Below, piece after piece: positions 7,644-28,388 of a DNA stretch of 64,000 bases; position 1 is the first letter of the stretch; each line of letters begins with the position of its first letter. The notes under the pieces are model-generated. The model saw only the letters and a list, made by a program, of their open reading frames with translations, did no database searches and was not told where the DNA came from. The stretch is from Candidatus Parcubacteria bacterium (lineage in GTDB: Bacteria; Patescibacteriota; Minisyncoccia; Sungbacterales; SURF-37). The stretch covers positions 150,362 through 214,361 of the forward strand of contig QZJO01000009.1 of NCBI GenBank assembly GCA_003599755.1. Direction: 5' to 3'. The position numbers were made by a program, and so were the translations under genes.

Positions 7644-7713
7644 CAACCTCCAGCGGTTCGTATTTGAGCGGTACCACGATCCCGACTCGATTGACAATCG
7701 GATTGACCGGCAA

Positions 7714-8484
7714 TCACGCGACGGGCTTCCGACCGTCGACGGCCCAGCTGTTGCCATTAACATGAACTACCGAAACATGTTCCAAACCCGCCTGGCGCAA
7801 AAGTTCTTCGGCTTCGGATCGGCGATAATAGCGCGCGATCGCCGGCAGGAGCTGATCAAACGCGATGCTGTGCAAATGCGAAAAGCGGAAATTCCGAATT
7901 TGACGCAGGTACGGATGCTTCACCGGCCAGACGCGGAGGAATACGTACAGCGGCGCCGAGCAACCGTACGTCAGGACGTGCAATAGCGGCGGCGGCAGAT
8001 GGCTCGTGATGGCTCGACGCACCGGCGAGACGAACCGCTCGATCCATTCATTCCCCTCATATCCATAGACCCAGATATGCACCCGGCCGCCGGGCCTGAC
8101 CGCATCGGCGAGTTTCCGCACCGCCGCGGCCGGATCGGCAAGATGATGGATCACGCCGATCGAGAACGCGAGATCGAACTCGTTCGTCCATGGCGCGTCG
8201 TAAACGCTCAGGGTCTGGACGCGGACATTCGGATACGAGGCCAGGTTTGCTTGGGCCGCGGCAACGGAACGCCCGTCCGCATCGAACGCTACAACTTCGG
8301 CCGCACCCCACCGAAGCGCCCATACGCTGTTGCGGCCCATGCCGCAGCCGGCGTCCAATACGCGCTTGCCCGCGATATCGGCCGGCCCGAGCGGCGCCAT
8401 CCAACGCCGAAACTGCTCCTCGTATTCCGGGAGTACCGCTGCATAGGTCTGCCACTCGAAGGCGAAACGGTCGGCGGAAGCCAT
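7714..8484 (-). CDS. Class I SAM-dependent methyltransferase
   Basis: Motif I VLDAGCGMGRNS and downstream acidic-loop / PGGRVHIW pattern. Confidence 0.75.
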   Translation of the reverse strand: MASADRFAFEWQTYAAVLPEYEEQFRRWMAPLGPADIAGKRVLDAGCGMGRNSVWALRWGAAEVVAFDADGRSVAAAQANLASYPNVRVQTLSVYDAPWTNEFDLAFSIGVIHHLADPAAAVRKLADAVRPGGRVHIWVYGYEGNEWIERFVSPVRRAITSHLPPPLLHVLTYGCSAPLYVFLRVWPVKHPYLRQIRNFRFSHLHSIAFDQLLPAIARYYRRSEAEELLRQAGLEHVSVVHVNGNSWAVDGRKPVA

Positions 8485-8487: not shown

Positions 8488-9066
8488 TCAGGCGCGTGAT
8501 GGTTTTTCAAAAATGAATTCGATCTCGTCGAACCCGCCGACCCAATAACACCAGAGGCGGCTGGCAAGCGCCGGCGCGGCATTCGCGAATGCCGAAACCA
8601 CGGCATTGACGGCGCGCGCGGCCGCGATGCGGACCGCGCCGTACCCCATGTGCGGTAAGAGATGGAAATGGGCAATGTAGCTCAGGCGCATGCGCCGCAG
8701 GAGAAATTCGGTGCCGGTATACCCGGACTTCGTGAACGCAGCATTGAAATATAACGGAAACGTCACGTCGAATCCGTGCGCGTGCTCGGCATGCGTAAAT
8801 CCACGGCTAAAGTGCGGCACTTTGACATGCAGCACGCCGCCGGGCCGGAGAATACGATTGAGCTCGGCCATCACCGCAAACGGCCGATCCAGATGCTCGA
8901 GAACGTGGAATGCCTCGATCCGGTCGAACGACCGGTCCGGAAACGGATACGGCAGGACGTTCAGATCGTGCACCACGTCGGGATGCACGCCGGCCTGCCA
9001 ATCCACGTTGACGTAGCCGTCTTTGCGGTCTTCGCCGCAGCCGAGGTTGAGTTGTTTCAGTTCCAT
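8488..9066 (-). CDS. Class I SAM-dependent methyltransferase (Methyltransf_11-like)
   Basis: LNLGCGEDRKDGYVNVD motif I and ILRPGGVLHVKVP motif. Confidence 0.7.
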   Translation of the reverse strand: MELKQLNLGCGEDRKDGYVNVDWQAGVHPDVVHDLNVLPYPFPDRSFDRIEAFHVLEHLDRPFAVMAELNRILRPGGVLHVKVPHFSRGFTHAEHAHGFDVTFPLYFNAAFTKSGYTGTEFLLRRMRLSYIAHFHLLPHMGYGAVRIAAARAVNAVVSAFANAAPALASRLWCYWVGGFDEIEFIFEKPSRA

Positions 9067-11018
9067 GATAGCCGCCAGACGCGCCAGGCATCCGGTGATT
9101 CCGCATCACTATAGACCGGCTCGGCACCGAGCCGCAACAGGCAATCCGGATCGCTCCGCATGGGCTCGACGCCCGGCCGCGCGACTACGTAGGCGATGCC
9201 GAGGCGGCGCAGACCATTGGGATCGCATGCGGACTGAAATGCCTCGTATGCGGCCAGCTCTTCCGCGTAGCCCCAGCCGACGATGAACGGGCCGGGCGCG
9301 AAGCGTCCAGTCTCGCGGATGAATTCCTCGCTGAACGGATAGAACCGGTCGGTATGCGCCGAGTTGCCCCGTACCCACGCATAAAGACGCGCCGCTTCGG
9401 GTACCGGCGCGTCGGGTATGCCGAGAAACGGCCGGGAAAAATCGCCGACGAATCCGAGCGGCGTCAACGTATAGATAACGAGAAACGCCAGCGCGGTTCC
9501 GCCCATGGCGAACGCCGCGACGCCGACCGCGGCCGTCCGCCAGGAAAACCGCCGCCACGCGCCGGATCGCTCAACGATTTCGGCGAGCAACATGCCGGCA
9601 AGAAACGAAAAGAGTTGGGTCGAAAACGCGAAGAACCGTTCCATTTCCCGCGGGCGGGTTTCGTAGCGAACCGCCAGCGGTACAAGAAACGCGATGGCCG
9701 GGATCATAGCTATGAACAGGGCCCTCGGATTACCGCGGAAGCGCCATGCCGCGAACGGAAACAGCGCGAGCGGCAGGCCGAACTCAAGAAAGAATGACGG
9801 ACGAAACGGCAACACGCCCTTGTCCGTAATTTCGGTATTCCAAAAATCCTCCACGAATGCGAATGCTTGCGGTTCCTCGGATTGTCCGAGCGTGGAGAGA
9901 ATCCCGCCCTGCCAAAACGCCATCGCGGTACCCACACCGAGTATGATTGCCGTGACGGCAATCGCGCGCCCCGGCGTCCCGGGTATCGCGCGCGCGAACC
10001 GAGTAGGCCAGATGCGGCCGAGCGGCCCGGCGGCGATCCCCGCGGCGACAAATGCCGCAAACAGTACGGCAACATGCGTCTCGAGCGCGAGCGCAGCGTA
10101 GCCGTACGCGATGCCTGCCACAAGCGCGAACGCGAACCAGCGCGTACCGGTCGCGAGCGCGCGCAGATAGGCGTAGAGAGCCACGAGCAGTACTGGCAAT
10201 CCGAGCGCCGTGGTGTGATTGGATGCCATCACGAAGCTCGAATCGAACCGCGGCGTTGTCATGGCCGCCAAAAACGCCCATGGCGCATCGCGCGCCTCGC
10301 CGAGTATGAATGTCTGCCAAAGGCCGACTATGCCGGGGACCACCGCGAGCCAAGCGAGTCCTCCGCCGATGCCGAAAAATACCGCGCCCCATACCGCCGC
10401 GTGCGTACCGAAGCCGAGCTCGCGCGCGAGCGCAAACGCCATGAGCAATCCGGCAAAAACGAAGAGGAACGTCTGCAGATCGTAACCGATCCACAGCGGC
10501 GTACCGGCTACGCGGGAAAATATCGCAGAGAGCATTTCGGGCGCGTAGTGGTACGCGACCGGATGATCGGGCGCGGACGGATCCGACACCGGCAGATTGC
10601 CTTCAGCGATCGTAGCTGCGAGCGGCAGATGGCCGAGCTTCACGTCTGAATCCTGCAACGTGCGGAGCGCGACAATACCGGCCAGCGCCGCGATGCCAAG
10701 CGCGATGCCGAACAGCACGAAGGCCTCGTGCCGCGAAATATCGCCGCGCTCAAGCGATGCCGCCTGCCGCGCGGCAAGCCATTGCCAGCCGAACGCGGCT
10801 GAAAGCGCCATGAGGCCGAGTATGAGCCAAACCGCGGCGTCGAACGGGAGGAAAAATCCCGCAGCGTTGACCGCCGCGCCGAGCGTTCCGAACCCGGCAA
10901 TGATCGCTATCGGCGCAACGGCCCAGACGCGCCGCTCGCCCAATATACCCACGGCAACAAGGCCGCCGAACGCGGCCGCGACCCCGAGCAGTCCGATAAA
11001 GAAAATAATGCTGAGCAT
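9057..11018 (-). CDS. Polytopic integral membrane protein with ~200-aa C-terminal soluble domain (possible glycan polymerase/GT-C-like; family unclear)
   Basis: At least 12 hydrophobic segments then a non-hydrophobic tail; architecture resembles the 40413-42131 protein. Confidence 0.45.
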   Translation of the reverse strand: MLSIIFFIGLLGVAAAFGGLVAVGILGERRVWAVAPIAIIAGFGTLGAAVNAAGFFLPFDAAVWLILGLMALSAAFGWQWLAARQAASLERGDISRHEAFVLFGIALGIAALAGIVALRTLQDSDVKLGHLPLAATIAEGNLPVSDPSAPDHPVAYHYAPEMLSAIFSRVAGTPLWIGYDLQTFLFVFAGLLMAFALARELGFGTHAAVWGAVFFGIGGGLAWLAVVPGIVGLWQTFILGEARDAPWAFLAAMTTPRFDSSFVMASNHTTALGLPVLLVALYAYLRALATGTRWFAFALVAGIAYGYAALALETHVAVLFAAFVAAGIAAGPLGRIWPTRFARAIPGTPGRAIAVTAIILGVGTAMAFWQGGILSTLGQSEEPQAFAFVEDFWNTEITDKGVLPFRPSFFLEFGLPLALFPFAAWRFRGNPRALFIAMIPAIAFLVPLAVRYETRPREMERFFAFSTQLFSFLAGMLLAEIVERSGAWRRFSWRTAAVGVAAFAMGGTALAFLVIYTLTPLGFVGDFSRPFLGIPDAPVPEAARLYAWVRGNSAHTDRFYPFSEEFIRETGRFAPGPFIVGWGYAEELAAYEAFQSACDPNGLRRLGIAYVVARPGVEPMRSDPDCLLRLGAEPVYSDAESPDAWRVWRLSWN

Positions 11019-13880: not shown

Positions 13881-14942
13881 TTAGTGCACGTGGGACTCCA
13901 GAATTTGCTCGTCGGCTTCGATCATGACGCGGGCGGTCTTTCCGACGATTCGGTCGGCCATCGCCGGCGCCAATCCGCCTTTGCCCGGCCGTTTGAACGC
14001 GATCATATCCCGCGTAATAGCCATACCCGCCGCGATATCCCTGCGCGCCACGATAGCCTGGCTCGCCCAGTTGCGGCCGGTCTCGAGTCGCCGCAGCCGC
14101 TCTGCATCCGGCACCGGCCGCAAAGCCGCTTCCACATCGCGGATCTGGCGCACCATGAGCTTGAACTCCGCGGGCAAAAGCGCCCCCGGGTTATCGAGCG
14201 AACGCGGATCGTCCTTATCAAAGGTAAGGTGTTTTTCGACGACGCATGCGCCGAGCGCCACGGCAGCAAGGACAACCTGCCAGCCCACCGAATGATCCGA
14301 GATGCCGACCGGCAGGCCCGTCAATTCGCCGATGCGCCGCATCCGCGTAAGGTCGATTGCATCGTACGGCGTGGGATACAGCGTCGTACAATGCAGCGCG
14401 ATCATCGGCCCCGCGCCCGCCTGGCTGAGTGTGTCGATCGCGCGCACGACCTCGTCATCCGACTGTAAGCCGAACGATATCATGATGGGCTTTTTCGCCG
14501 CGCCGACCCGCTTGAGAAAATCTATGTTGCCCGCCTCCCCGGACCCGATCTTCAGAAACGGCGGATCGAATTCGCGGAGCAAAAGATCCAAACTCTCTTC
14601 CTCATGCGCCGTTGCGAAAAACGGGTAGCCCGCCGTGCGCGCGTAACGCGCGAGATCGGCGAGCGCCTCGAGTGATAGTTCCTTGTATTTCACGCGTTCG
14701 AACCAATCGAAGCCAAGCTCCGGCGCAAGGCGCTTGGCGACTTTCCTGCTGATTAATGCCTCGGTGTTCGTCACCTGAAACTTCACGATATCCGCACGCG
14801 CGGCCGCTGCGGCATCTACCTGGCGTTTGGCGAGTTCCAGATCTCCATAATTGGTAACGCCGCCTTCGCAAATAACGAAAACGGGTTGGCCGGGGCTGAT
14901 AATCCGACTGCCGGCGCGAAATGGCGGCTGGGATTGATTCAT
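13881..14942 (-). CDS. N-acetylneuraminate synthase family (NeuB/LegI/PseI-like) with C-terminal SAF domain, copy 2
   Basis: VFVICEGGVTNYGD motif, SAF-like C-terminus (IVARRDIAAGMAI...); start chosen at the ATG giving ATGA overlap with the upstream gene (alternative ATG at 14963). Confidence 0.8.
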   Translation of the reverse strand: MNQSQPPFRAGSRIISPGQPVFVICEGGVTNYGDLELAKRQVDAAAAARADIVKFQVTNTEALISRKVAKRLAPELGFDWFERVKYKELSLEALADLARYARTAGYPFFATAHEEESLDLLLREFDPPFLKIGSGEAGNIDFLKRVGAAKKPIMISFGLQSDDEVVRAIDTLSQAGAGPMIALHCTTLYPTPYDAIDLTRMRRIGELTGLPVGISDHSVGWQVVLAAVALGACVVEKHLTFDKDDPRSLDNPGALLPAEFKLMVRQIRDVEAALRPVPDAERLRRLETGRNWASQAIVARRDIAAGMAITRDMIAFKRPGKGGLAPAMADRIVGKTARVMIEADEQILESHVH

Positions 14943-15901
14943 AGCGGATGTCGGCGGCACCATTGCACGGTAAGCTCGGCGATATGAAGCATCGATTTTT
15001 CCGTGGCTTCTCTCGTAGCGCCGCCCAGATGCGGGACGATAATCATATTCTCATGAGTCCGGGCATAGTCAACCAGCGGATGCGTTTTGACGTGCGCGCC
15101 ATCGGGCGTCTCGCCGGCCAGCGTATCCACTGCCGCACCGGCAATGCGCTTGGCCTTGAGTGCAGCCAAGAGCGCGGATTCGTCCGCGATCTCGCCCCGC
15201 GCGGTATTGATGAACACTGCCGTCGGTTTCATCAGGCGGAAATGCCGGGCACCGAGCATACCGGCAGTTCTATCGCTGTACACGCAATGCACCGAAACGA
15301 CATCGGCGGCGCGCAACAGCGCGTTAAGCCCAGCGCGGCGCGCGCCGCCGCGAGCCATTGCGCTTGCCGAAACATACGGATCATAGGCGATCACGCGCAT
15401 GCCGAACGCGCGCGCATAGCGCGCGACATACGAACCGAGCCGCCCGAAGCCGATGACGCCGAAGGTCTTGCCGGCGAGCTCATGGCCACCGTACCGGCGC
15501 CGTTCCCAGCGCCCCGCCTCCAGCGAGCGCATGGCCCAGGGAATATTGCGCACGAGCGCGAGTACGAGCGCGAACGTCTCTTCGGCCGTGGACGGAATTT
15601 GGCGCAATACCGGGGAGTCGCCTTTGATATGCACGACAGCGATCCCCCGCCGCGCGGTTTCAGCGCGGTCGATGTGCCGCAGCTGTGTGGTGCGCGAGGC
15701 GACAAGCTCGAGGCGCGGCGCGCGATCCAGCACGGCTTTGGTGAAATTCACCTCCAGCCCTGCGACCACGACATGCGCGCGCGGCAAATTTTTAAAAAAC
15801 ACCGAGCGGCTGCCGAACGGAATAACGCGGCCGACGCGCGCCAGCATACGCATTGCCTGCGGGCTGAATTCCCGTTCTGCGATAAGGATAACGCGCTTCA
15901 T
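14939..15901 (-). CDS. D-isomer-specific 2-hydroxyacid dehydrogenase (NAD-binding; glycerate/phosphoglycerate dehydrogenase-like)
   Basis: GVIGFGRLGSYVARYARAFGMRV Rossmann motif; FINTARGEIADESAL; catalytic H in VPHLGG. Confidence 0.75.
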   Translation of the reverse strand: MKRVILIAEREFSPQAMRMLARVGRVIPFGSRSVFFKNLPRAHVVVAGLEVNFTKAVLDRAPRLELVASRTTQLRHIDRAETARRGIAVVHIKGDSPVLRQIPSTAEETFALVLALVRNIPWAMRSLEAGRWERRRYGGHELAGKTFGVIGFGRLGSYVARYARAFGMRVIAYDPYVSASAMARGGARRAGLNALLRAADVVSVHCVYSDRTAGMLGARHFRLMKPTAVFINTARGEIADESALLAALKAKRIAGAAVDTLAGETPDGAHVKTHPLVDYARTHENMIIVPHLGGATREATEKSMLHIAELTVQWCRRHPL

Positions 15902-16629
15902 ACGAGCCCTGCCCGAATTATGCATTCGGCGAGCGCCAAGTCGTTCGGCGTATTAATATCGAACGCGCCGAGCTCATCGATACCGAGACCGACGCGCCGA
16001 CCGACTTCAAGGCCGTGTTCTCGGAAAAATGCGTCGCGCCTGAACCAGTAGCAGTTGCCGAACGCATAGCGCCTGGGGTCCGATTGGCGCGTCGGATGGG
16101 CATAATGCATTTCGGGCTGATCGAATTCCAAAAATCCCTTATCAGTCATGCGGCGCACATGATAGGGATGGAAAATGCGCGGCACCTCGATACAGGTAAT
16201 GCCCGAATCGGCGCCCTTGGTCGTTACGAGTTCGAATAGCCGATCGATATGGTCCGACCGGATGAACGGTTCCGTGGGCTGAGCGAGCAACACGTATTCG
16301 GGTGCGTAGTGCTCATGCTCTTCAAGCCACCGGAGCGCATGATCCACGACGGGAATCATCGGCGTAGAATCCTCGGCCAATGCGGCAGGACGCACATACG
16401 GCGTCTCGGCGCCGTATTGGCGCGCAATCGCGGCGATCTCCTCGTTATCGGTATCGACGATCACCCGCCGTACTGAGTGCGCATGGTGTATTGCCGCCAA
16501 AACATACGCAAGCAACGGTTTACCGGCGAGGGGATGAATATTCTTTTTCGGAATCATTTTCGATCCCCCGCGTGCGGGAATGATCGCCAACGTTTCCTGC
16601 GGCTCGTCTCTGGTCACAGTCATGGTCAT
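15898..16629 (-). CDS. Acylneuraminate cytidylyltransferase family (CMP-nonulosonate synthetase), copy 2
   Basis: IIPARGGSKMIPKKNI motif; 243 aa. Confidence 0.8.
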   Translation of the reverse strand: MTMTVTRDEPQETLAIIPARGGSKMIPKKNIHPLAGKPLLAYVLAAIHHAHSVRRVIVDTDNEEIAAIARQYGAETPYVRPAALAEDSTPMIPVVDHALRWLEEHEHYAPEYVLLAQPTEPFIRSDHIDRLFELVTTKGADSGITCIEVPRIFHPYHVRRMTDKGFLEFDQPEMHYAHPTRQSDPRRYAFGNCYWFRRDAFFREHGLEVGRRVGLGIDELGAFDINTPNDLALAECIIRAGLV

Positions 16630-16640: not shown

Positions 16641-16689
16641 AAAGAAAACGGGGGTCGTCGTGAAGCGCTCTGCTCCCTCGACGACCCCC
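16641..16689 (-). terminator. Candidate intrinsic terminator after SQD1-like gene
   Basis: 11-bp perfect stem GGGGGTCGTCG/CGACGACCCCC (16650-16689) followed on the minus strand by GUUUUCUUU. Confidence 0.5.
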
Positions 16690-16695
16690 TCGAAC

Positions 16696-17883
16696 CTATA
16701 GCGATCGCGTCTGGCGCCACTGCACCGTCGGCATGATCGCCTCGCGGTTGATGGCTTCCTTGGCTTCGCTCACCCGCCGCAGGAGCGACTGCACCAGTTC
16801 ATCCGACAACGCGGTCGGCGTGAGCCCGAGACGCAGGAGGTGGTCGTTGCGCGGGTTGTAGTAGTGGTCTTCTGCTTCGACCCGCGGGTTCTCGATCCGG
16901 CGGATCGTCGCATCCCATCCGAGTATGCGAGCCGCGTCGCAGACGGCCTTGGCAAGCTCGAATACGGAAAAGACCTCGGTGAACTGATTGAACACCCGGA
17001 ATTCGCCTGCCGCGGGAGGGTTCATGGAGGCGAGCTCAACGCACTGAATGGTGTCGCGGATGTTGAGGAACCCGCGCTTCTGATTCCCTCCTCCGTACAC
17101 GGTGATCGGATGGCCGGTCGCCGCCTGCACGACGAAGCGGTTCAGCGCCGTTCCGAACACGTGATCGTAGTGGAAACTCGTCACGAGCCGCTCGTTCATG
17201 TCCGTCTCGGGAGTAGAGATGCCGTAGACGACTCCCTGGTTCAGATCGGTCGCCCGCAACTTCCAGATCCGGCAGGCGAAGGAAATGTTCCCCGAGTCGT
17301 GAACTTTGGACCAGTGGTACCAGGATCCTGCCTGCTTCGGAAACGGAAGGGTGTCCTTCCGCCCCCGATGTTCGATCTCGATGAAGCCCTCCTCGATGTC
17401 GATGTTCGGGGTTCCGTACTCACCCATGGTCCCGAGCTTCACGAGGTGCGCGTGCGGCACCACCTCCTGCATGGCGTACAGCACATTCAGGGTTCCGATG
17501 ACGTTGTTCCGCTGCGTGAACGTCGCGCGGCGATGATCGATCATCGAGTACGGCGCCGACGGCTGTTCGGCGTAGTGGATGATCGTCTCGGGCCGGAACT
17601 CCTGAAAGACGTCCTTCAGAAACTCGAAATCGCCCGCGATGTCGCCCAGAGAGCTTCGGATCCGGAGACCCGAGCACTCGCGCCAGGCGGCGAGTCGCTG
17701 CCGCAACGATGGAATCGGGAACAGCGGCATGGCGCCGACTTCCTCCTCCCACCGCCGCTTGGCCATGTTGTCTACGATCGCGACGTCATGCCCCTTGGCC
17801 GAGAAGTGCAGCGCCGTGGGCCAGCCAAGATACCCATCGCCGCCAAGAACCAGGATCCGGAGTGGGCGGAAGTCGATCCGCAT
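16696..17883 (-). CDS. UDP-sulfoquinovose synthase (SQD1/SqdB)-like extended SDR
   Basis: Diagnostic N-terminus RILVLGGDGYLGWPTALHFSAKGHDVAIVDNMAKRRWEEEVG matches the SQD1 signature (GGDGYCGWATAL...IVDNLVRR); strong SD AAGGAGG 4 nt before the ATG. Confidence 0.7.
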   Translation of the reverse strand: MRIDFRPLRILVLGGDGYLGWPTALHFSAKGHDVAIVDNMAKRRWEEEVGAMPLFPIPSLRQRLAAWRECSGLRIRSSLGDIAGDFEFLKDVFQEFRPETIIHYAEQPSAPYSMIDHRRATFTQRNNVIGTLNVLYAMQEVVPHAHLVKLGTMGEYGTPNIDIEEGFIEIEHRGRKDTLPFPKQAGSWYHWSKVHDSGNISFACRIWKLRATDLNQGVVYGISTPETDMNERLVTSFHYDHVFGTALNRFVVQAATGHPITVYGGGNQKRGFLNIRDTIQCVELASMNPPAAGEFRVFNQFTEVFSVFELAKAVCDAARILGWDATIRRIENPRVEAEDHYYNPRNDHLLRLGLTPTALSDELVQSLLRRVSEAKEAINREAIMPTVQWRQTRSL

Positions 17884-17963
17884 GCTGCCCTCCTTATGGG
17901 GACAAAGTATTGAGGAACTGCTATTCCTCTTATAGCGCTAAGTCCGGTAATTGTCACCATTGA

Positions 17964-18000
17964 CGCAAAAAATATGCTGCCTGGTTCACAGACAGCATAT
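17964..18000 (-). terminator. Intrinsic terminator after NeuC-like gene
   Basis: Stem ATATGCTG/CAGCATAT (17972-18000) followed on the minus strand by UUUUUUGCG (A-run 17965-17971 on the plus strand); starts 3 nt after the stop. Confidence 0.6.
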
Positions 18001-18003
18001 CCA

Positions 18004-19170
18004 CTAGCGCCCGATGACGAGGCGCTTGCGAAAGAGCGTTTCGTTGAGCTCGAGCGCTTTGACGATCTCGAGCACCCTGTTGCTCGCGCGCCCGTCACCG
18101 TAGCGCCGGCCGCAGGAGGCGAGCGCGGCGCGGAAACCCGGATCGCGACCGACGAACTCGATCGCCTCGCGAATAGCCGGTACCGCCAGAGGAACGTCGC
18201 GAACATTCGCTTCCCGATCGCGTCCTTGCTGGCGCGCACCGATGTTCAAAGCGGGGAGACGGAAATACGGCGCCTCTACGAACGCTGCCGACGAATTCCC
18301 GAGCATCACCTCGGCGCCGGCCATCAGACCGAGAAAATCGAAATTCTCGATGTTCGGAAACAGCCGGAACCGCGGATGCCCTCGCCGCTGCTCCAGAACC
18401 TCGATGATTTCGTCATAGCCGGGATCCGAACACGGGTATACGGCGATCCACGTGTGGCCGCTCGCGATCGCCGCCGCACACACCCGTTCCGCGACTTCGC
18501 GGTTCTCCGATGCTCCGAGGAACGTATCGGGATGCAGGATGAGGATACCGTAGCGCTCGCCCGGGCCGATGCCGTAGCGCCCGGCCGCTTCGCCGGGCGG
18601 CGTATACATCTGGCGCAAGATACGATCGATGTAGAGCGAACCGACGGCGTGCACCCGCCATGATTCTTCACCGAGCGCCCGAATGCGGGAGGCCGCTTCT
18701 TCGGTCTCCGCGAAATGCACATGGGCGAGCTTCGTGATCGCGTGGCGCTGGATGTCGTCGATGTTGCCCGACACCTCGCCGCCCTGGGTATGCGTCACCG
18801 CAATACCGAGGGTTACTGCGGCAAGCGCCACGATGAGATGCTCCGCGCGATCGGCATGCACCATGACGATATCGGGCCGCTCGCGTTCGAGCAGGCGCGC
18901 GGCCTCGCTCATGCAGCGGCCGAGGTTTTCTGCCCGCACAAGCGCACTGCCTCCGCGTCCGGCCCCCATCTCGATGCGATGTATGGCGCGCGCGGGAAAA
19001 AGATTTTCTGCCTCCCGTACCGTCGCCCCGAACTCGGCGGCCAGATGCATGTCGCCGAGCAGGATCATGAGCTCGAGATCAGGATCGGCTTCGATCGCAC
19101 GCATGAGCGGTACATACGCGCCGAAGCCGCCGCGCTTTCCCGAAAAGGCGCAAATTTTTTTTGGCTTCAC
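18004..19170 (-). CDS. UDP-N-acetylglucosamine 2-epimerase family (NeuC/LegG/WecB-like)
   Basis: Epimerase_2-like layout, HTQGGEVSG motif; GTG start at 19168-19170 preceded by SD AGGGAGG. Confidence 0.7.
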   Translation of the reverse strand: MKPKKICAFSGKRGGFGAYVPLMRAIEADPDLELMILLGDMHLAAEFGATVREAENLFPARAIHRIEMGAGRGGSALVRAENLGRCMSEAARLLERERPDIVMVHADRAEHLIVALAAVTLGIAVTHTQGGEVSGNIDDIQRHAITKLAHVHFAETEEAASRIRALGEESWRVHAVGSLYIDRILRQMYTPPGEAAGRYGIGPGERYGILILHPDTFLGASENREVAERVCAAAIASGHTWIAVYPCSDPGYDEIIEVLEQRRGHPRFRLFPNIENFDFLGLMAGAEVMLGNSSAAFVEAPYFRLPALNIGARQQGRDREANVRDVPLAVPAIREAIEFVGRDPGFRAALASCGRRYGDGRASNRVLEIVKALELNETLFRKRLVIGR

Positions 19171-19244: not shown

Positions 19245-20285
19245 TCAATGCTCTTGAACATAGATGTGTCGTGACAGCCGCAACGGCGGCGCGATCGCCG
19301 TCGGCGCGCCTCCTTCGACCCGAAACAGCGCTCGCCTGCCGCCCGGCGCATCATTCGCATCAATGCGCGCCAACAAGAGTGGTTCGGTCAACGATCGATT
19401 GAAGGCCCGCTCCATGGTAAATCCAATCTTCATGCCGGCCGCGCGCGCCGCATCGGCGACTGCGACATTCACCTGACTCGCCGTGCCATACGGATAGGAG
19501 ATGCTTCTGACGGCCTCGGGCCTGATTCCGGCCGCGCGCGCGACGGCATCGCGGCATATCCGGATATCCGCTGCGGCGTCATCCGGCTTCAGCAGTCCGA
19601 GCGGTCGATGCCGATAACCATGGATACCGAGGTATCCGCGCGCGGCTAGATCCTTAAGCCCCTCTTCCGATATGTACCACGCGCGGACGAATCCCGTATC
19701 GTCGCCGTGATGTTCCGTAAAAACATCGGCAACCAGACGTTCCTCAAGCTCTTGGCCCAAGACGCCTTTGGTAAGGACGTATTTCACGCGCGCATCTTCG
19801 AGCGCGTCATATGCGTATTGCGCGCGGACCATCGCGTCGGCAATGCCGAGCGATGCGAGGTCGAACGGCATCCCCGTTATCCGCGTATATGCCGTTCCGA
19901 TCTGCTCAAGCAATTCCGCGGGGGGCATATGCGCGCGGAGCCAATGAACCATATGGATATGGAGCGGTCGCTTCTCGGCATACGGCAATCCATTCGCGAA
20001 AAACAGGGCTGGGATGCCGAGCGCATCGAGTATTGGCAACGCAATCGCATATTGGTCCGCGAGGCCGTCATCAAACGTGATGACGCAGGCGCGTTCGGGA
20101 AGCGGTTGGTCTCCCGCGAGCGCCGCGAGGATATCGGCCTGGCCTACGAATGCGAATGCGCGCGCCAGTTCCTCAAGCTGGCGGCGAAACACGGCGGCGG
20201 AGATCGCATAGATCGCCGGATGCGGGTACGCCGCCTCGCCGATGTAATGATAATTGACGGCAAGTAACTGCATACCCGGTGGCAC
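19245..20285 (-). CDS. Polysaccharide deacetylase (NodB/CE4 homology domain)
   Basis: VITFDDGLADQY NodB motif 1. Confidence 0.65.
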   Translation of the reverse strand: MPPGMQLLAVNYHYIGEAAYPHPAIYAISAAVFRRQLEELARAFAFVGQADILAALAGDQPLPERACVITFDDGLADQYAIALPILDALGIPALFFANGLPYAEKRPLHIHMVHWLRAHMPPAELLEQIGTAYTRITGMPFDLASLGIADAMVRAQYAYDALEDARVKYVLTKGVLGQELEERLVADVFTEHHGDDTGFVRAWYISEEGLKDLAARGYLGIHGYRHRPLGLLKPDDAAADIRICRDAVARAAGIRPEAVRSISYPYGTASQVNVAVADAARAAGMKIGFTMERAFNRSLTEPLLLARIDANDAPGGRRALFRVEGGAPTAIAPPLRLSRHIYVQEH

Positions 20286-20397: not shown

Positions 20398-21198
20398 TCA
20401 CGCGACGATGGGAAACCGCGCGTCGCGCCGGGCGCGGTCCGCAAGATACGCCGGGATCATGCCCTGGGCGAATCGCTCGCGCATGCGGCGGATAGCATCG
20501 GCGTTGAAATCGCGGTTGCGGAATAGTTTTCCGCCGCCTGGTTGCTGCAAAACGGGCAGCACGGACCCGGCGGCATAGTCCGCAAGCGTAGCCGCGAGCG
20601 TTCGCGCACCCGCCTCGATCGTGCGGCAGCCGATGGTATGACAGTCATCATCCGGACCCATCGCTGGCCGCACTTGCCGGAGAATCGGACCGGCATCCAC
20701 GCGCGCGCTGGCAAGATGAATCGTCGCGCCTACGCATTCGGGCTCGCCCTCGACGAGCGGCCAGAAGTTGGTCGCCGTGCCGCGATAGTATGGAGAGAGG
20801 CCGAGATGGATATTCACGACGCGGTCGGGAAACGCGTTCAGAAGCCGATCCTGAATAATGCTCGATCCGAAGAGCACCACGTACGTCGGCCGACGCTCTT
20901 GAATCCAGGCAAACGCGGCATCGCTGTTCGCTTCGCCGTGCGCAAGCGCCACCGTATGTTCGGCAGCAACCGGAAAGGATTGCGCCTGACCGAAAAACCG
21001 CTGCTCCGCCGCGGCGAATCCCTCAACGTGCTCGCGCATCAACGGATCGGATTCGGGCGCGGGCGCGGCACCGGCGCGCTTCCCTTCCGCGATCACGCCC
21101 GCAAGATCGCAAACGGCGGCCAGCGCGTACGCGAGAAACCGATGCCGCGGCTTGGTGCTGGTAATCAGTACGAGTGATGGACGAGTTGGCGCCCTCAT
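20398..21198 (-). CDS. Formyltransferase (Formyl_trans_N; sugar N-formyltransferase/Fmt-like)
   Basis: VLFGSSIIQDRLLNAFPDRVVNIHLGLSPYYRG (N10-formyl-THF binding HxSLLPxxxG-type motif); start taken at the internal ATG giving ATGA overlap (ORF extends to 21270). Confidence 0.7.
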   Translation of the reverse strand: MRAPTRPSLVLITSTKPRHRFLAYALAAVCDLAGVIAEGKRAGAAPAPESDPLMREHVEGFAAAEQRFFGQAQSFPVAAEHTVALAHGEANSDAAFAWIQERRPTYVVLFGSSIIQDRLLNAFPDRVVNIHLGLSPYYRGTATNFWPLVEGEPECVGATIHLASARVDAGPILRQVRPAMGPDDDCHTIGCRTIEAGARTLAATLADYAAGSVLPVLQQPGGGKLFRNRDFNADAIRRMRERFAQGMIPAYLADRARRDARFPIVA

Positions 21199-21959
21199 GC
21201 GTCGCGTTTTGTGCATGCGTATAATATATCGGTGCCGAACCAAGCGCGGAATCGCTCCCGTCCGAACCAAACGCGTTGAGCCCCCGCGACTTTGAGCCAG
21301 CCGAAGCGGCTCTGACGTAGTTTTGCGATATCTAGCGTATATTCGCGCGCGCGAATGCGGAACGCAGGCGAGAATATCTTCTCGACAAGCGCCGGAGTAA
21401 AAATAGCGATGTGGTTATTCTTCGTCGAGTAGCGTTCGAGCTCGCCGCTGCGCAGAAAATTCTTCCTACTGAGCAGTGAAGCGACGTTCGGCATAGACCA
21501 AAAGAATATGCCTCCGGGTTTCAACACGCGCGCGACTTCGCGGACGAAGTGAAACGGGTTTTCCAGATGCGGCAGCACGCACCATGCAGTAACGAGATCA
21601 AACGATGCATCCGGCCATGGCAGCGGATCGCTCGAAAGATCGGCAGTTTGAAAATCGCGAATCAGGCCGCGCTCGCGGATTTCCGACGCACGATAGTCGT
21701 CGATGTCCACGGCGGCGATCGTGCGGATGCCGATGCGTCCCAGTTCCTCTGCGAAGTAACCGCTTGCGGTTCCGCAATCGAGAGCGTGAAGCTCTGAAAA
21801 CAAGGGAAGCTCCGACCGCCACCGCTCAATAAATGCCGCACCAATCCCGGCTGCGTCGCCGAAATGCCCCTCGAGCGCCGCGCGGGCTTTCGCGGCGGCA
21901 GGGCCGCGGATTTCGGCCGCGGTCAAATACGGAAGCGTAATTCTGTCTTTCTTAGGCAT
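21195..21959 (-). CDS. Class I SAM-dependent methyltransferase
   Basis: LDCGTASGYFAEELG motif I, VLKPGGIFFWSMP; start at MPKKDRITL (ATG 21957-21959); the long upstream in-frame extension is judged non-coding. Confidence 0.7.
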   Translation of the reverse strand: MPKKDRITLPYLTAAEIRGPAAAKARAALEGHFGDAAGIGAAFIERWRSELPLFSELHALDCGTASGYFAEELGRIGIRTIAAVDIDDYRASEIRERGLIRDFQTADLSSDPLPWPDASFDLVTAWCVLPHLENPFHFVREVARVLKPGGIFFWSMPNVASLLSRKNFLRSGELERYSTKNNHIAIFTPALVEKIFSPAFRIRAREYTLDIAKLRQSRFGWLKVAGAQRVWFGRERFRAWFGTDILYACTKRDA

Positions 21960-23310
21960 GCGTGCGTATGCCGATATGCTCGAGAAGCGCGTCGGCCACG
22001 CGCTCGGATGCCTTTCCATCTGGGTCGCTGCCGTATTGTTCGCGGATGATACGCCGCCGGCCCTCGCGGTCGAGCGTCGGATCGGCCAGATACCGCCGAA
22101 TCCAGGCACGAAACTCGTCGGCGGTATCGGCGCGCGCAACACCCCCGCTTTCCAAAATAGCGCGGAAATGAATATACCCGTACGGCCGTACGCCTTCAAA
22201 GCCGGTCTTGGGCGTGCGGTGGAAATTGGCGATGATCGTCGGTTTGTCGAACAAAGCCGCCTCAATAGCGATCGTTGAGGGGCCCGTCACCACGAGATTC
22301 GCATGCCAGATGCCATTGACCAGCATCGCGTCGTCTTCGGGTGTAAGATCCCGATCGCCCACCCGGTTCGGGTCATAGGTAACGCCGGGGCGGTCAAAAT
22401 ACATATGCGGCGGCGGGACAAACCCCTCAAGGCCGCTTACGCGGTCTGCGGGCGGAAACCGCACGATGACATTCGCATCGAGCTCGGCCAGAATATCCAT
22501 CGCATAGCGGTCGACATCATTTTCGCGAATATAAAGGTCTCCTATGGGTGCGAAAAAAATCAGCGGCTTTGCGGGATCGGCGTTGATGCGCCTGAAAAAT
22601 TCTTCGCGCGGAATTTTCAGCCCTTTCAGATACTGATCATAGTGCGGAATACCGACCACGCGAATGCGCTCGGCCGGCATGCCGTCCAGTTCGATCGCCT
22701 CGCGCCGCAATCGCTCGCTCCATACGAGCAGCTCATCGGGAAAGATGCGCAATAAGCTATGGATGGTAAGGTTGTCCCAGGATCGCACCATGCCGATCGT
22801 CGGAATGCCGCGGCGCCGGGCATCATGCATGAGCGCGATATCGTTTTCGTTCAATATGTCCGTGGCAAACACTAAATCCGGGCGCATCCGATCGAGCAGA
22901 TCCCCGAACAGTTCGCGGGGCCCGAGCACGCGATCAAGCCACCGAACGATTCGCGGCGCGGCCTTGGTCCGGCCGATCGCTTGCGAACCGTAATAGAGCG
23001 CTCGATACCACCACGGCTTGCCCAGGTACATGAGGTATTCTTCACGAATCCGAATGCTTTCGGTCGCAAGCATCAAACGCGCAAGACGCTTGCAGAACAG
23101 TCCGCGGCGCGTGCGCGTCGGCCTGCTTGCGACAACGCCGACGATTTCGACATCCTGCCGGGCGAACCGATCCGTAAAGTAGGATACTTTATAATCCGGC
23201 ACAACGACGACGATCCGATGTCCTGCCGCGAGCAGGCGCGGAATGATATCGGTCGCGATGATGTTTCGGGAAATGAGGAGGTGGAAGCTCGTTATGAAGA
23301 TCGTTTTCAT
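21952..23310 (-). CDS. TagF/TagB-family (Glyphos_transf)-like protein, paralog 3
   Basis: VVGIPHYDQY, IFFAPIGD, TIAIEAALFDKPTIIANF; start MKTIFITSF chosen (ATGA overlap). Confidence 0.55.
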   Translation of the reverse strand: MKTIFITSFHLLISRNIIATDIIPRLLAAGHRIVVVVPDYKVSYFTDRFARQDVEIVGVVASRPTRTRRGLFCKRLARLMLATESIRIREEYLMYLGKPWWYRALYYGSQAIGRTKAAPRIVRWLDRVLGPRELFGDLLDRMRPDLVFATDILNENDIALMHDARRRGIPTIGMVRSWDNLTIHSLLRIFPDELLVWSERLRREAIELDGMPAERIRVVGIPHYDQYLKGLKIPREEFFRRINADPAKPLIFFAPIGDLYIRENDVDRYAMDILAELDANVIVRFPPADRVSGLEGFVPPPHMYFDRPGVTYDPNRVGDRDLTPEDDAMLVNGIWHANLVVTGPSTIAIEAALFDKPTIIANFHRTPKTGFEGVRPYGYIHFRAILESGGVARADTADEFRAWIRRYLADPTLDREGRRRIIREQYGSDPDGKASERVADALLEHIGIRTHA

Positions 23311-24683
23311 TCGTTCTTGTTCATGACGGCTAGGCGGCTTCGCGCGCCAAGAATCTTCGCGAGCCGCGCGCTCGCGCCCCCGTCCAGCCGCCAGGCCTCT
23401 TGGGTTACGATGCGTGCCCTGCCGGCGCGATCGAGCTCCGGATCGCTGCAATACCGTCCAATCCATTTCCGAAGCTCTTCAGGGCTTTCAGCAAAGCGGA
23501 TGCCGCCGGCGGCGCGCAATGAAGCAAAATGATCGTAATCGTAGTAACGCCGAATGCTCTCATAGTAGGGACGGTTCGGGGTCGGGTCAAAGGCGATCGC
23601 TATCGCCGGCGTATCGTAGACCGCGGCGTCGATGAGAATCGTTGAGGGGCCGCCAACCACGACTTCCGCAAATGCGAGCGAATCGCGCAGCACCTCATCG
23701 TCCTCCAGCGTCAATTCGTTGTGCTTGAATCCTTTGCCCGTCCCCAGCTGCCGCCCGGGCCGGTGCACGAGCGCGGCGGGCGGCAGATCGGCCGCGATGC
23801 GCATGCTATCGCTCGGCGGAAGCCGCACCACGATCCGCCATCCCGCAGGCAGCGCATCCGCCAACAGCCGGATGACGAATCCGTCCAGATCGTTTTGGCC
23901 CAAATACCGATCCCCGGTCGGCGCGTAGAGCACGAACCGCTCGTCCGGCCGAAGGCCGAGACGCGCGGCGAAATCAGCGCGCGCATGCGGCGGCGCGCCG
24001 CCGTACCGGTCATAATGCGGGATGCCGATGACCTGAAGCGCCCCGCGCGGAATGCCATGGTACCGCGCCGCTTCTTCCGCGACGAGCTCGTTATTGACGA
24101 CAAGCGTGTCCGGAATCGTACGGACGAGACCTTTCGCCGTCAGATTGTCCCAGGAACGCACCATACCGATCGTCGGCACGCCCGCATCGCGCGCCGCCTC
24201 GATAAGACGTGCATCGGCATCCTGTTGGACATCGGTTGCGAACACCGCATCCGGCCGATACGCGCGCACAATAGCGCCGAATGGCTCGCGCGGCGCGAGC
24301 CAGCGGCTTACCTGCCGGATCAACGCCTGCGCCCAGCGCCGGTTACCGATCAGACGGACGAGCAGCGCGCCGCGGCCGCCCAATTCGGTCTTGCGCTTAA
24401 TCGCCAGCGAATGGGTATCCGTCGCCGCGAGCGCGAGATAGCGCAGCGCGGCCTCAAACCGCGTTGATGCGAACGCGACCGGATGGATAATAAGGCCGGG
24501 TCGCAAAAATTCCGAAAGAAAAAACAATTGCTTCTCTACAGGAACCAGCAGAACGACGCGCGTCGCGCCATCGGCAAGCAACGCATCCAGAAGCGGCGAC
24601 GATATGATGTTACGAGAAATAAGGACGTGAAAACTCGTCATGAGTATCGTCCTCGGTCGAACGGTCGGTGGTTGGCTAGTCAT
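23307..24683 (-). CDS. TagF/TagB-family (Glyphos_transf)-like protein, paralog 4
   Basis: VIGIPHYDRY, FVLYAPTGDRY, TILIDAAVYDTPAIAIAF. Confidence 0.55.
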   Translation of the reverse strand: MTSQPPTVRPRTILMTSFHVLISRNIISSPLLDALLADGATRVVLLVPVEKQLFFLSEFLRPGLIIHPVAFASTRFEAALRYLALAATDTHSLAIKRKTELGGRGALLVRLIGNRRWAQALIRQVSRWLAPREPFGAIVRAYRPDAVFATDVQQDADARLIEAARDAGVPTIGMVRSWDNLTAKGLVRTIPDTLVVNNELVAEEAARYHGIPRGALQVIGIPHYDRYGGAPPHARADFAARLGLRPDERFVLYAPTGDRYLGQNDLDGFVIRLLADALPAGWRIVVRLPPSDSMRIAADLPPAALVHRPGRQLGTGKGFKHNELTLEDDEVLRDSLAFAEVVVGGPSTILIDAAVYDTPAIAIAFDPTPNRPYYESIRRYYDYDHFASLRAAGGIRFAESPEELRKWIGRYCSDPELDRAGRARIVTQEAWRLDGGASARLAKILGARSRLAVMNKNE

Positions 24684-24781
24684 GGGAAACGAGCGGAATG
24701 CGGATCCGCTCATTTATAATACGGCTTCCCTGCCTGCCCTGTTTCCTCCCCGTGCCTGTCGCGCTCGGAACTCTTTGTACG

Positions 24782-26129: not shown

Positions 26130-26157
26130 TTGACAATTTACAGAAAAGATATACAGT
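26130..26157 (+). promoter_or_regulatory. Sigma-70-like promoter for the IMPase-family gene
   Basis: TTGACA (26130-26135), 16-nt spacer, TACAGT; AT-rich patch; GAGGTGA SD before GTG 26207. Confidence 0.4.
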
Positions 26158-26206
26158 TTTTACAGCCAAACTGCCCTTCGACAACTTCAACCAGCGAGGT
26201 GAAAGT

Positions 26207-26995: not shown

Positions 26996-27055
26996 TCGGA
27001 CACCCCGGCATCAAGCTCGACTGACCGTCGAGCGCAGTACCTTCGAGAAAATCGA

Positions 27056-27096
27056 GCGCCCCACAGAGAAAGACCTCTGCGGGGCGCGTTCGTTTT
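27056..27096 (+). terminator. Intrinsic terminator after IMPase-family gene
   Basis: Stem GCGCCCCACAGAG/CTCTGCGGGGCGC (1 mismatch) followed by GUUCGUUUU. Confidence 0.55.
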
Positions 27097-28379: not shown

Positions 28380-28388
28380 ACCTATCGA

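Follow-up and report, generated by a model that had tools for sequence, protein, structure and literature searches.

UDP-sulfoquinovose synthases of the SQD1/SqdB/Agl3 type are short-chain dehydrogenases/reductases (SDRs), and [ST]MG..Yx3K has been described as the fingerprint of their class (PMC8987622). One SDR that forms a 5,6-ene, Pen, is the first enzyme of a pseudaminic acid pathway (PMC8987622), and known sulfated sialic acids are O-sulfates (e.g. PMC13634767). The DNA analysed here was a stretch of 64,000 nt (60% GC) on contig QZJO01000009.1 of a Candidatus Parcubacteria bacterium, hereafter called the window. It carries a gene for an SqdB/SQD1-like predicted UDP-sulfoquinovose synthase, which stands among genes for NeuC-, NeuA- and NeuB-like enzymes of nonulosonic acid (NulO) biosynthesis. 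Taken alone, this gene adds an ordinary new member to the SqdB family. In its context, there is about an even chance that UDP-sulfoquinovose is converted further into a CMP-activated 9-deoxy-9-sulfo nonulosonic acid, an undescribed surface sugar; this estimate includes a sub-variant based on N-acetylglucosamine (GlcNAc). The literature searched contained no relevant paper in which nonulosonic acid, sialic acid synthase or NeuB was brought together with sulfoquinovose or sqdB. As far as can be told, biosynthesis of nonulosonic acids by a conserved SqdB-NulO cassette is a variant that has not been described before.

The SqdB-like protein comprised 395 aa, with the N-terminus MRIDFRPLRILVLGGDGYLGWP and the motif VDNMAKRR further on, from which the original prediction had recognised an SQD1-like synthase. 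The searches bore this out. Arabidopsis SQD1 was ~60% identical over the full length (384 residues). Using phmmer against all PDB chains, SQD1 (1i24/1qrr) was matched with an E-value of 3e-152 and 510 bits, residues 8-391 corresponding to SQD1 12-394. The only strong matches were the three Arabidopsis SQD1 entries, followed by UDP-glucuronate decarboxylase and GalE with E-values of 1e-9 or worse. The NCBIfam model NF041015, 'UDP-sulfoquinovose synthase', gave 479.3 bits. This was below its equivalog cut-off of 575 bits and more than 10 times higher than GalE, dTDP-glucose dehydratase and all other SDR models, which remained below 40 bits. Pfam detected generic SDR families only, Epimerase (5.7e-17) and GDP_Man_Dehyd. 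The NAD site GxxGxxG of an extended SDR was present as GGDGYLG (residues 14-20), and the segments KLGTMGEYGT and SWYHWSKVHD aligned to SQD1 142-151 and 180-189. SQD1 T145, M146, Y182, H183, K186 and H96 (the His within IIHYAEQ) were all retained. Apart from residue 101, which is considered below, the sugar-pocket motifs were the same as in plant SQD1, including HYYN, which aligned with the gatekeeper position of GalE. Classical SqdB of the Sinorhizobium type was ~40% identical. By the PDB and NCBIfam scores and the kept motifs, the window protein is a genuine relative of SQD1/SqdB/Agl3 and not an ordinary 4-epimerase or 4,6-dehydratase. The same protein, 100% identical, is deposited at NCBI as RJQ36802.1 from a Candidatus Parcubacteria metagenome-assembled genome (MAG), where it is annotated merely as 'NAD-dependent epimerase/dehydratase family protein'.

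Species-representative genomes contained 455 SqdB relatives, mostly in non-photosynthetic Actinomycetota, Acidobacteriota, Chloroflexota and Patescibacteria; at the gene level, the earlier statement that such a sugar is uncommon in bacteria does not hold. The loci of the best 80 of these relatives, which were 57-67% identical to the window SqdB across phyla and retained His183 and the TMG motif, were searched with the proteins of the window neighbours, and gene maps were drawn from open reading frames (ORFs) chosen by cross-locus conservation. Within a few kb of sqdB, NeuA-like proteins were encoded at 19 loci, NeuC-like proteins at 18, NeuB-like proteins at 17, a TagF-like transferase at 15 and the dehydrogenase of the window at eight. 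The set of SqdB, NeuC, NeuA, NeuB and TagF-like transferase, hereafter the module, was represented by 19 of the 80 nearest loci. These belonged to Patescibacteria, Actinomycetota (Gaiellales), Gammaproteobacteria and Desulfobacterota (Desulfarculales, Syntrophaceae). Its five members were the only families conserved across the module loci. All of the top seven SqdB hits were module-linked, as were the top 11 except L008, where the contig was cut off upstream of sqdB.

Gene order varied around this common content. The actinomycetotal locus L048 formed a minimal operon, NeuB>NeuC>NeuA>SqdB>transferase with gaps of 1-20 nt, in which the TagF-like protein was the sole transferase. Saccharibacteria (L009/L010) showed NeuC>SqdB>NeuA>transferase. 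The Gaiellaceae locus L003 held SqdB>NeuA>dehydrogenase>NeuB with NeuC adjoining, which is the order of the window and was also shared by L086, L096 and L097. In Falkowbacteria (L060) the order was transferase>NeuC>methyltransferase>NeuA>CysH>CysD>CysN>SqdB>NeuB. The PAPS/APS (3'-phosphoadenosine 5'-phosphosulfate/adenosine 5'-phosphosulfate) reductase CysH (PF01507 3e-45, C-terminal ECGLH) stood beside sqdB in L001, L002, L017, L043, L060, L082 and L084, and two of these seven loci also had CysD/CysN beside sqdB. The genes sqdB and cysH/cysDN were interspersed among neuA, neuC and neuB and did not form a separate block. A sulfite source, which the original prediction had proposed to look for, was present beside sqdB in these relatives and missing from the window itself.

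The linkage was also seen in the reverse direction. Metagenome contigs were searched with the window NeuB-like protein, which yielded 35 loci. Where NeuB was at least 48% identical and the flank adequate, SqdB was located within 7 kb in 10 of 11 cases (L082, L084, L086, L087, L092, L093 and L095-L098), two of them with CysH. The exception was L083, with only 2.5 kb upstream, filled by another gene. On short metagenome contigs the order NeuA-dehydrogenase-NeuB was still seen. No SqdB was found beside NeuB hits of ≤36% identity in the metagenome loci. A plasmid collection, searched for a cultured carrier of the module, contained no NeuB more than 38% identical to the SqdB-linked subtype, and its best SqdB, from Pseudonocardia (56% identical), had an ordinary context with a family 2 glycosyltransferase (GT2). 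Homology, conserved catalytic motifs, gene order and two-way co-conservation across phyla were observed directly. Horizontal transfer may have spread the cassette among Patescibacteria, Gaiellales and other Actinomycetota, Gammaproteobacteria and Desulfobacterota; as part of the sulfo-nonulosonate proposal, this shares its roughly even chance. In a neighbour-joining (NJ) tree of 82 SqdBs, most module-linked proteins fell into one region. A clean phylogenetic separation of the module SqdBs was not obtained, and the tree was treated as unresolved, so reliance was placed on best hits.

Two further features were recorded at module loci. A canonical-looking second NeuB was present beside the SqdB-linked NeuB in L001, L002, L004, L005, L026, L043 and L093, and in several loci the canonical-looking extra set comprised NeuA as well as NeuB. 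A GalE-like SDR was located directly upstream of CysH-SqdB in L017 (8230-9228) and L043 (8126-9058) and directly upstream of SqdB in L026 (9008-9934), where no CysH was detected. All three loci are from Patescibacteria, and the GalE-like SDR reached 224.6 bits with TIGR01179, for which the cut-off is 262.3. Its position points to an enzyme dedicated to supplying the UDP-hexose substrate.

The partner enzymes were related to known NulO enzymes at varying distance. The window NeuC-like protein gave only 83 bits with the model of the non-hydrolysing WecB, and its best PDB match was 5zlr, a hydrolysing GDP/UDP-diNAcBac 2-epimerase of the LegG type (1.8e-47). The best NCBIfam model for the NeuA-like protein was PseF, with a score of 139.8 bits, which is below its cut-off of 205.7. 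NeuB of the window was below the equivalog cut-offs of both NeuB (256 vs 400 bits) and PseI (179 vs 340 bits). SqdB-linked NeuBs were aligned with Neisseria meningitidis NeuB (NmNeuB), the canonical-looking second copies from the same loci and other homologues. They retained the metal and phosphoenolpyruvate (PEP) ligands and Arg314 (KRPG). The window NeuB had E25, K53/Q55, the K129..E134 motif, H215, H236, D247 and R314 in common with NmNeuB. Several motifs were replaced in the linked proteins: 'NH(30)' by 'TNY', 'TPF(112)' by 'T[AP]H[DT]' and 'STGM' by 'SFGLQ', and 'GPD(247)' by 'DPRS[LF]D' in the two closer of three linked subclades. The beta2-alpha2 loop was rebuilt, with an invariant W..R.[KR].K at NmNeuB 79-86. 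In NmNeuB, Asp247, Gln55 and Tyr186 bind N-acetylmannosamine (ManNAc), Asn74 in the beta2-alpha2 loop contacts the C6 hydroxyl and Arg314 binds the N-acetyl group (PMC11339185; numbering of the paper offset by 2). Because the changes cluster at the distal end of the sugar and add basic residues, the remodelling would fit an anionic substituent at C6. Linked NeuCs carried GKRGG[FY]GA and YPCSDPGY, compared with GTRxxY and [YW]PNxDxG in LegG and unlinked hydrolysing epimerases. Judged from these alignments, the NeuBs and NeuCs linked to SqdB each form a subfamily of their own, in which motifs of the substrate-binding region have changed.

The TagF/BFO_1060-like family was present in 16 of 20 module loci and was the sole co-conserved transferase. 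Its profile matched only the capsule polymerases TarL (6e-6) and TagF-like (2e-4) in the PDB, both CDP-donor enzymes. Its sole NCBIfam match was the model of Tannerella forsythia transferases for pseudaminic/legionaminic acid (Pse/Leg) derivatives (NF046086), with 45-55 bits vs a cut-off of 200. Knock-outs of the Tannerella transferase homologues lost the terminal nonulosonic acid (PMC5420450).

In the proposed pathway, SqdB would be the sulfite-dependent entry enzyme, forming UDP-6-deoxy-6-sulfo-glucose from UDP-glucose and sulfite. The NeuC-type enzyme would eliminate UDP and hydrate the resulting glycal to 6-deoxy-6-sulfo-mannose, which could be regarded as a sulfonate mimic of mannose-6-phosphate or ManNAc-6-phosphate. 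The specialised NeuB-type synthase would condense this sugar with PEP to a 9-deoxy-9-sulfo nonulosonate, of the Kdn type, or of the N-acetylneuraminic acid (Neu5Ac) type if GlcNAc is the hexose. Activation with CTP by the NeuA-like enzyme would give the CMP derivative, and transferases of the TagF/BFO_1060 type would place the sugar onto a surface glycan or protein of the patescibacterial cell. Tailoring steps may be provided by the dehydrogenase resembling phosphoglycerate dehydrogenase (PGDH), the methyltransferases, the deacetylase/formyltransferase and the AsnB-like amidotransferase. Beyond the SqdB step, all substrates named here are inferred. The proposal draws on the CysH supply in relatives, the lack of a conserved UDP-sugar transferase, a transferase with a cytidine-donor fold and the distinct NeuB; its chances are put near one in two. 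The original prediction had seen sulfoquinovose as a 6-deoxyhexose of a surface glycan and had not recognised the flanking NeuC/NeuA/NeuB-like genes; its view is probably incomplete. Since the SqdB-Neu linkage is conserved across phyla, UDP-sulfoquinovose is more likely an intermediate to a sulfonated nonulosonic acid than a mere donor of a 6-deoxyhexose.

The remaining 61 of the 80 SqdB loci contained no Neu genes and served as a contrast set. Most often, a glycosyltransferase gene stood directly after sqdB. A GT2 with an N-terminal DUF2304 membrane domain held this position in 23 loci (L018-L080; e.g. L039 11181-12233), from MAGs of Gaiellales, Acidimicrobiia, Solirubrobacterales and others. 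These pairs suggest widespread envelope glycans containing sulfoquinovose, or lipid-linked sulfoquinovose, in Actinomycetota. A type I phosphodiesterase and a Wzx-like flippase were often encoded at the same loci. In cultured Pseudonocardia, sqdB was next to a GT2. In Terribacillus it was directly followed by a GT4, which we take to be of the CAZy family of the SqdX/SQD2 sulfolipid synthases. Neither the GT2+DUF2304 nor the GT4 type that follows sqdB was found in the other 28 module loci. Matches to these transferases in the window were limited to two generic GT2 hits of 30-32% identity and, for the Terribacillus GT4, to weak and distant matches of 24-26% identity at 43.5-46.7 kb. As a separate observation, 12 loci of Acidobacteriota (L052, L055, L056, L058, L059, L061, L063, L068, L069, L075, L077 and L078) had an sqdB of the Arg101 type beside an AsnB-like amidotransferase 42-44% identical to that of the window. 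In most of them sqdB was directly downstream of the amidotransferase gene, and a GT21-like glycosyltransferase and an EamA-like membrane protein were part of the block. This block may represent a different, uncharacterised pathway related to sulfoquinovose.

Several observations weigh against a sulfonated nonulosonic acid. All characterised hydrolysing epimerases of the NeuC/LegG type that are known to us use 2-acetamido sugars, and UDP-sulfoquinovose has a 2-OH. NeuC, NeuB and NeuA make up a complete Neu5Ac pathway and SqdB a complete pathway to UDP-sulfoquinovose, each without new specificities. The position aligned to NmNeuB Asn74 was mostly Glu in the linked NeuBs, and the signatures of this subfamily could be phylogenetic, not functional. 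In the NJ tree, the window SqdB lay outside the main module clade and shared a long branch with a Streptomyces sequence. No CysH, CysD or CysN was detected in the window by tblastn with the proteins of the relatives at an E-value of 1e-3. GT4 genes occurred within 10 kb of sqdB in seven module loci, and the GT4/GT2 genes of the window together with its ArnC-like GT2 could use UDP-sulfoquinovose. Arg101 of SQD1/Agl3 was replaced by Pro in the window SqdB (EQPSAP). The main rival is two independent pathways within one glycan island, a reading near that of the original prediction, which we consider possible but rather doubtful. UDP-sulfoquinovose would be added by GT2 or GT4 enzymes, directly or via polyprenyl-phosphate, NeuC, NeuB and NeuA would make a separate Neu5Ac-like NulO from UDP-GlcNAc, and the linkage would mark a co-inherited glycan cassette. 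The NeuC-like score above the curated cut-off, the retained Arg314, the ArnC-like GT2 directly past NeuB, the five GT4 genes and a GT2-PMT_2 fusion in the window are in line with it, as is the equipment of the window SqdB gene with its own promoter-like site and terminators. Pairs of SqdB and a glycosyltransferase in 23 or more other lineages also indicate that use of UDP-sulfoquinovose for glycans or lipid carriers is evidently common. However, no family of UDP-sugar transferases was co-conserved with the module, and the ArnC-like GT2, like the GT2+DUF2304 type, had no homologue in the other 28 module loci. The minimal operon L048 contained a TagF-like transferase only. The interleaving of sqdB and cysH/cysDN with the Neu genes also speaks against separate pathways, as does a NeuB subtype that almost never occurred without SqdB and departed from motifs shared by NeuB/PseI homologues.

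Within the sulfo-nonulosonate proposal, the hexose may be glucose or GlcNAc. Starting from UDP-GlcNAc, SqdB would form UDP-6-deoxy-6-sulfo-GlcNAc, leading via 6-sulfo-ManNAc to 9-deoxy-9-sulfo-Neu5Ac, and the deacetylase and formyltransferase could exchange the N-acyl group. This variant is counted within the overall estimate for the proposal and is by itself improbable. GlcNAc is favoured by the acetamido preference of known NeuC/LegG enzymes, by Arg314 in NeuB and by the neighbouring genes for deacetylase and formyltransferase, directly upstream in the same strand run. Glucose is favoured by pocket motifs identical to those of SQD1, HYYN among them. The GalE-like epimerase accompanying SqdB in loci of the candidate phyla radiation (CPR) fits a supply of UDP-glucose/galactose, and GlcNAc/N-acetylgalactosamine fits as well. 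The replacement of Arg101 would speak for GlcNAc too, as it was found in all module SqdBs and the position is presumably part of the sugar 'box', equivalent to GalE Lys84 and WbpP Gly102. However, Pro101 occurred also in the SqdBs paired with GT2+DUF2304, where both Pro101 and Arg101 types were found, and its distribution is thus wider than the module. It was discarded as a sign that the substrate had changed to UDP-GlcNAc or that the gene stands in a NulO context. Among the 80 nearest homologues, residue 101 was Pro in 54, Arg in 23, Ala in two and Cys in one. The same residue raises the question of catalysis, since the Agl3 R101A mutant was inactive (PMC4388408) and SQD1/Agl3 without sulfite release UDP-glucose-5,6-ene (PMC4388408, PMC8987622). 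A non-sulfonating SDR that has lost Arg101 could thus act as a UDP-hexose 4,6- or 5,6-dehydratase in the first step to a 9-deoxy nonulosonic acid, the place that an SDR usually has in Pse/Leg pathways. For this the NF041015 score below cut-off and the lack of a sulfite source in the window would also speak. We regard this as very unlikely. Seven Pro101 relatives had a PAPS/APS reductase beside sqdB, which makes sense only if sulfite is consumed, Pro101 was the prevailing residue among the nearest homologues, and the conservation towards SQD1, including His183 and the TMG motif, was extreme. No characterised enzyme of the Pro101 type was found in the literature. Because several Pro101 relatives adjoin the sulfite-producing CysH, Pro101 enzymes are probably still sulfite-dependent, and they were taken here as active sulfite users.

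Expression signals were located on both sides of the window SqdB gene (Table 1). The original prediction had described a separate transcription unit with a strong Shine-Dalgarno sequence, an intrinsic terminator on each side, translationally coupled neighbours and only a weak TATAAG element upstream. The Shine-Dalgarno sequence was confirmed. TATAAG was present as well, and it was not alone, as GTGACA precedes it at a spacing of 17 nt. Each hexamer agreed with the consensus at 5/6 positions. The automated promoter scan passed over this pair because it demanded T at position 6 of the -10 element. The upstream hairpin (17970-18002) had a folding energy of -27.5 kcal/mol (z -4.8), and 0/200 shuffles were equally stable. 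The 3' hairpin (16650-16689), followed by GUUUUCUUU (16641-16649), reached -32 kcal/mol (z -3.5, 1/200 shuffles as good). A relaxed terminator scan of the whole window gave 25 sites vs 8-13 in shuffled sequence, and the 3' hairpin of SqdB was the strongest terminator-like structure in the 64 kb (score -30.4). Coupling of the neighbours was evident from ATGA overlaps at the NeuA-like/dehydrogenase and dehydrogenase/NeuB-like junctions and from gaps of 5 nt between NeuB-like and GT2 and 4 nt between GT2 and AsnB-like genes. SqdB had a GC content at third codon positions (GC3) of 0.83, the top of 37 scored window genes (0.70 +/- 0.05).

The unit is separate in having its own Shine-Dalgarno sequence, promoter-like site and hairpins. 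Full insulation is doubtful, as only 11 nt separate the end of the 3' hairpin from the NeuA-like ATG. Full termination there would orphan the coupled NeuA-dehydrogenase-NeuB-GT2-AsnB genes, leaving them without an obvious promoter. The hairpins therefore likely attenuate or stabilise the transcript and set a different expression level, rather than prove a monocistronic unit. Promoter-like site, strong Shine-Dalgarno sequence, hairpins and top GC3 together suggest that expression of SqdB differs from that of the coupled downstream genes, and its level is probably higher. A riboswitch or other known RNA near SqdB was represented by a sub-threshold match to sbcD-RNA only (17963-18116, minus strand, 24 bits vs a gathering threshold of 40, E 0.04), which spans the NeuC-like 3' end and the following hairpin and is probably due to chance. 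The two other strong U-tract hairpins in the window were located at ~48430-48480 (minus strand, -28.0 kcal/mol), in the 5' region of the LTD/PKD surface-protein gene or close by, and at ~27045-27095 (plus strand, -27.1 kcal/mol), in a 950-nt gap after the ORF 26138-26968.

The genes around SqdB were all on the minus strand, in the order formyltransferase, deacetylase, NeuC, SqdB, NeuA, dehydrogenase, NeuB, GT2 and AsnB-like amidotransferase, followed in the direction of transcription by a 653-aa protein without assignment and two methyltransferases. Homologues of the deacetylase were present in only 2-3 other module loci, and membership of deacetylase and formyltransferase in the module is uncertain. 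The best PDB matches of the dehydrogenase were phosphoglycerate dehydrogenases (2e-44). It was kept at the NeuA/NeuB position in most close relatives and was missing from the CysH-bearing CPR loci except L082, which had both. The ArnC-like GT2, which scored 167 bits with NF007986 and so stayed below its cut-off, ended just before the MCGIAG start of the AsnB-like protein and is a possible alternative consumer of nucleotide sugars in the window. Together with the formyltransferase, the ArnD-like deacetylase, Ugd (29433-30728) and a PMT_2/ArnT-like GT-C enzyme (48945-50681), it resembles a lipid-carrier modification route of the Arn type, for which no aminotransferase was found. The two TagF-like ORFs upstream overlap by 160 nt, so that one start is probably miscalled; the start of 21952-23466 is probably an internal codon. 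The plus-strand ORF 23721-24467 is likely spurious.

The whole 45-kb region was a surface-glycan island with many GT4 and GT2 enzymes, a flippase, Ugd and GT-C enzymes of the PMT_2 type. No 4,6-dehydratase or aminotransferase of the Leg/Pse type was found near the window SqdB, and no DegT-type aminotransferase or acetyltransferase was detected among the conserved families of 20 module loci or the scanned window genes. No GT4 adjoined the window SqdB, unlike a sulfolipid (SQDG) locus, where a sulfolipid synthase (SqdX/SQD2 of GT4, or SqdD/SqdC) stands with sqdB. Patescibacteria largely lack lipid synthesis. The ORFs 9057-11018, 4948-6150, 7323-7763, 26138-26968, 27921-29456, 40413-42131 and 52279-53106 had no match in Pfam/NCBIfam. 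A second gene set of the nonulosonate type occupied 306-7200 of the window on the minus strand. Candidate surface or cell-wall proteins adjoining the glycan island (last three rows of Table 1) are possible glycan acceptors.

Table 1. Features of the window, with positions counted from its first nucleotide
Feature	Position	Strand	Basis and remarks
Formyltransferase	20398-21270	minus	Pfam and NCBIfam
Polysaccharide deacetylase (ArnD-like)	19245-20285	minus	Pfam and NCBIfam
NeuC-type hydrolysing UDP-sugar 2-epimerase, 388 aa	18004-19170	minus	TIGR03568 302.7 bits, above cut-off of 235.9
Terminator-like hairpin, 14-bp stem, U6 run	17967-18002	minus	begins 2 nt past NeuC-like stop
Sigma-70-like promoter candidate	17929-17957	minus	GTGACA (17957-17952), 17-nt spacer, TATAAG (17934-17929); consensus match only
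Shine-Dalgarno sequence AAGGAGG	17889-17895	minus	read from sequence; 5 nt before ATG
SqdB/SQD1-like predicted UDP-sulfoquinovose synthase	16696-17883	minus	395 aa; PDB SQD1 match
Terminator-like hairpin, 11-bp GC-rich outer stem and inner stem, tail GUUUUCUUU	16641-16689	minus	folding, window scan
NeuA-like CMP-nonulosonate synthetase (cytidylyltransferase), 243 aa	15898-16629	minus	Pfam CTP_transf_3 3.9e-22, above Pfam cut-off
PGDH-like D-2-hydroxyacid dehydrogenase	14939-15925	minus	Pfam 2-Hacid_dh_C 8e-55
NeuB-family synthase, TIM barrel and SAF	13881-14963	minus	Pfam NeuB 3e-59 and SAF
ArnC/GtrB-like polyprenyl-phosphate GT2, 321 aa	12910-13875	minus	PDB ArnC 9bhc 8e-47
TagF/TagB-like transferase, BFO_1060 family	21952-23466	minus	NF046086 54.8 bits, well below 200
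Tandem TagF/BFO_1060-like paralogue	23307-24713	minus	38% identical to 21952-23466; weak Glyphos_transf match
SDR	306-1241	minus	second nonulosonate-type set
Two TagF/BFO_1060-like transferases	1313-2671, 2668-4032	minus	second nonulosonate-type set
Second CTP_transf_3 protein	4029-4760	minus	PseF model 157 bits
400-aa protein without assignment	4948-6150	minus	second-highest GC3
Second NeuB-family synthase, no SAF domain	6229-7200	minus	second nonulosonate-type set
Lamin-tail/PKD-domain surface protein	46878-48689	minus	adjoins glycan island
1245-aa protein, peptidoglycan-binding domain, GC3 0.78	53588-57325	minus	adjoins glycan island
PG_binding_1 protein	50675-51931	plus	adjoins glycan island

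If the sulfo-nonulosonate proposal is right, the cassette would produce a new class of nonulosonic acid with a carbon-bound sulfonate at C9, 9-deoxy-9-sulfo-Kdn or -Neu5Ac. Such a sugar would carry two permanent negative charges and a C-S bond resistant to phosphatases and sulfatases, and would be a new fate for UDP-sulfoquinovose besides sulfolipids and archaeal N-glycans. NeuC and NeuB enzymes accepting 6-sulfo sugars would be of use in the chemoenzymatic synthesis of sulfonated sialic-acid mimetics. The presence of the cassette together with sulfate-activation genes in genome-reduced, episymbiotic Patescibacteria points to an important role at the cell surface, for instance in attachment to the host or in the evasion of phages or immunity. 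CPR surface chemistry is essentially unknown, and the cassette offers a lead into it. Should two independent pathways be present instead, sulfoquinovose-containing glycans would be far wider spread in non-photosynthetic bacteria than the literature suggests.

Compared with SQD1, SqdB and Agl3, the window protein shares the extended SDR fold, ~60% identity to SQD1 and the motifs GxxGxxG, T-M-G and Y-H-x-x-K, and its relatives adjoin CysH. It differs in the Pro at position 101, the NCBIfam score below cut-off, the patescibacterial host and its place among NeuC/NeuA/NeuB, with neither SqdX/SQD2/SqdD nor Agl1/2/4 beside it. The pairs of SqdB with GT2(DUF2304) or GT4 in Gaiellales, Acidimicrobiia, Terribacillus and Pseudonocardia resemble the window in the SqdB itself (56-65% identical), the non-photosynthetic hosts and a glycan or lipid-carrier context. 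They have a UDP-sugar glycosyltransferase directly after sqdB and no Neu genes, and the window is the reverse.

With the sialic acid route NeuC-NeuB-NeuA and the legionaminic acid route LegB/C/H to LegG-LegI-LegF, the locus has in common a hydrolysing 2-epimerase, a PEP-condensing synthase with SAF domain and a putative CMP-transferase in one operon. As in the Leg/Pse pathways, an SDR acting at C4/C6 of a nucleotide hexose precedes the late enzymes. In the window, a predicted sulfoquinovose synthase takes the place of the 4,6-dehydratase. Aminotransferases and N-acetyltransferases are not among the conserved genes, the scores of NeuB and NeuA stay below all equivalog cut-offs, and NeuB and NeuC show subfamily-specific motif replacements. 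The proposed logic would still parallel legionaminic acid synthesis, with an SDR modifying C6, a hydrolysing 2-epimerase acting on a 6-deoxy sugar, a synthase and a CMP-transferase, and Pen would be a chemical precedent for its first enzyme. The Tannerella forsythia transferases Tanf_01245, TFUB4_00887 and BFO_1060 (PMC5420450) share the TagB/TagF-like region with the module transferases at a weak match (45-55 bits vs 200), and module loci differ from them in holding several paralogues each. By reasoning, if the proposal is right, the pathway would also resemble the animal route to Neu5Ac-9-phosphate and Kdn-9-phosphate, in that PEP and a mannose-type sugar with an anion at C6 would give a nonulosonate that is anionic at C9. 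It would differ in using a bacterial NeuB-type enzyme and in keeping a non-hydrolysable C-sulfonate, which no phosphatase would remove.

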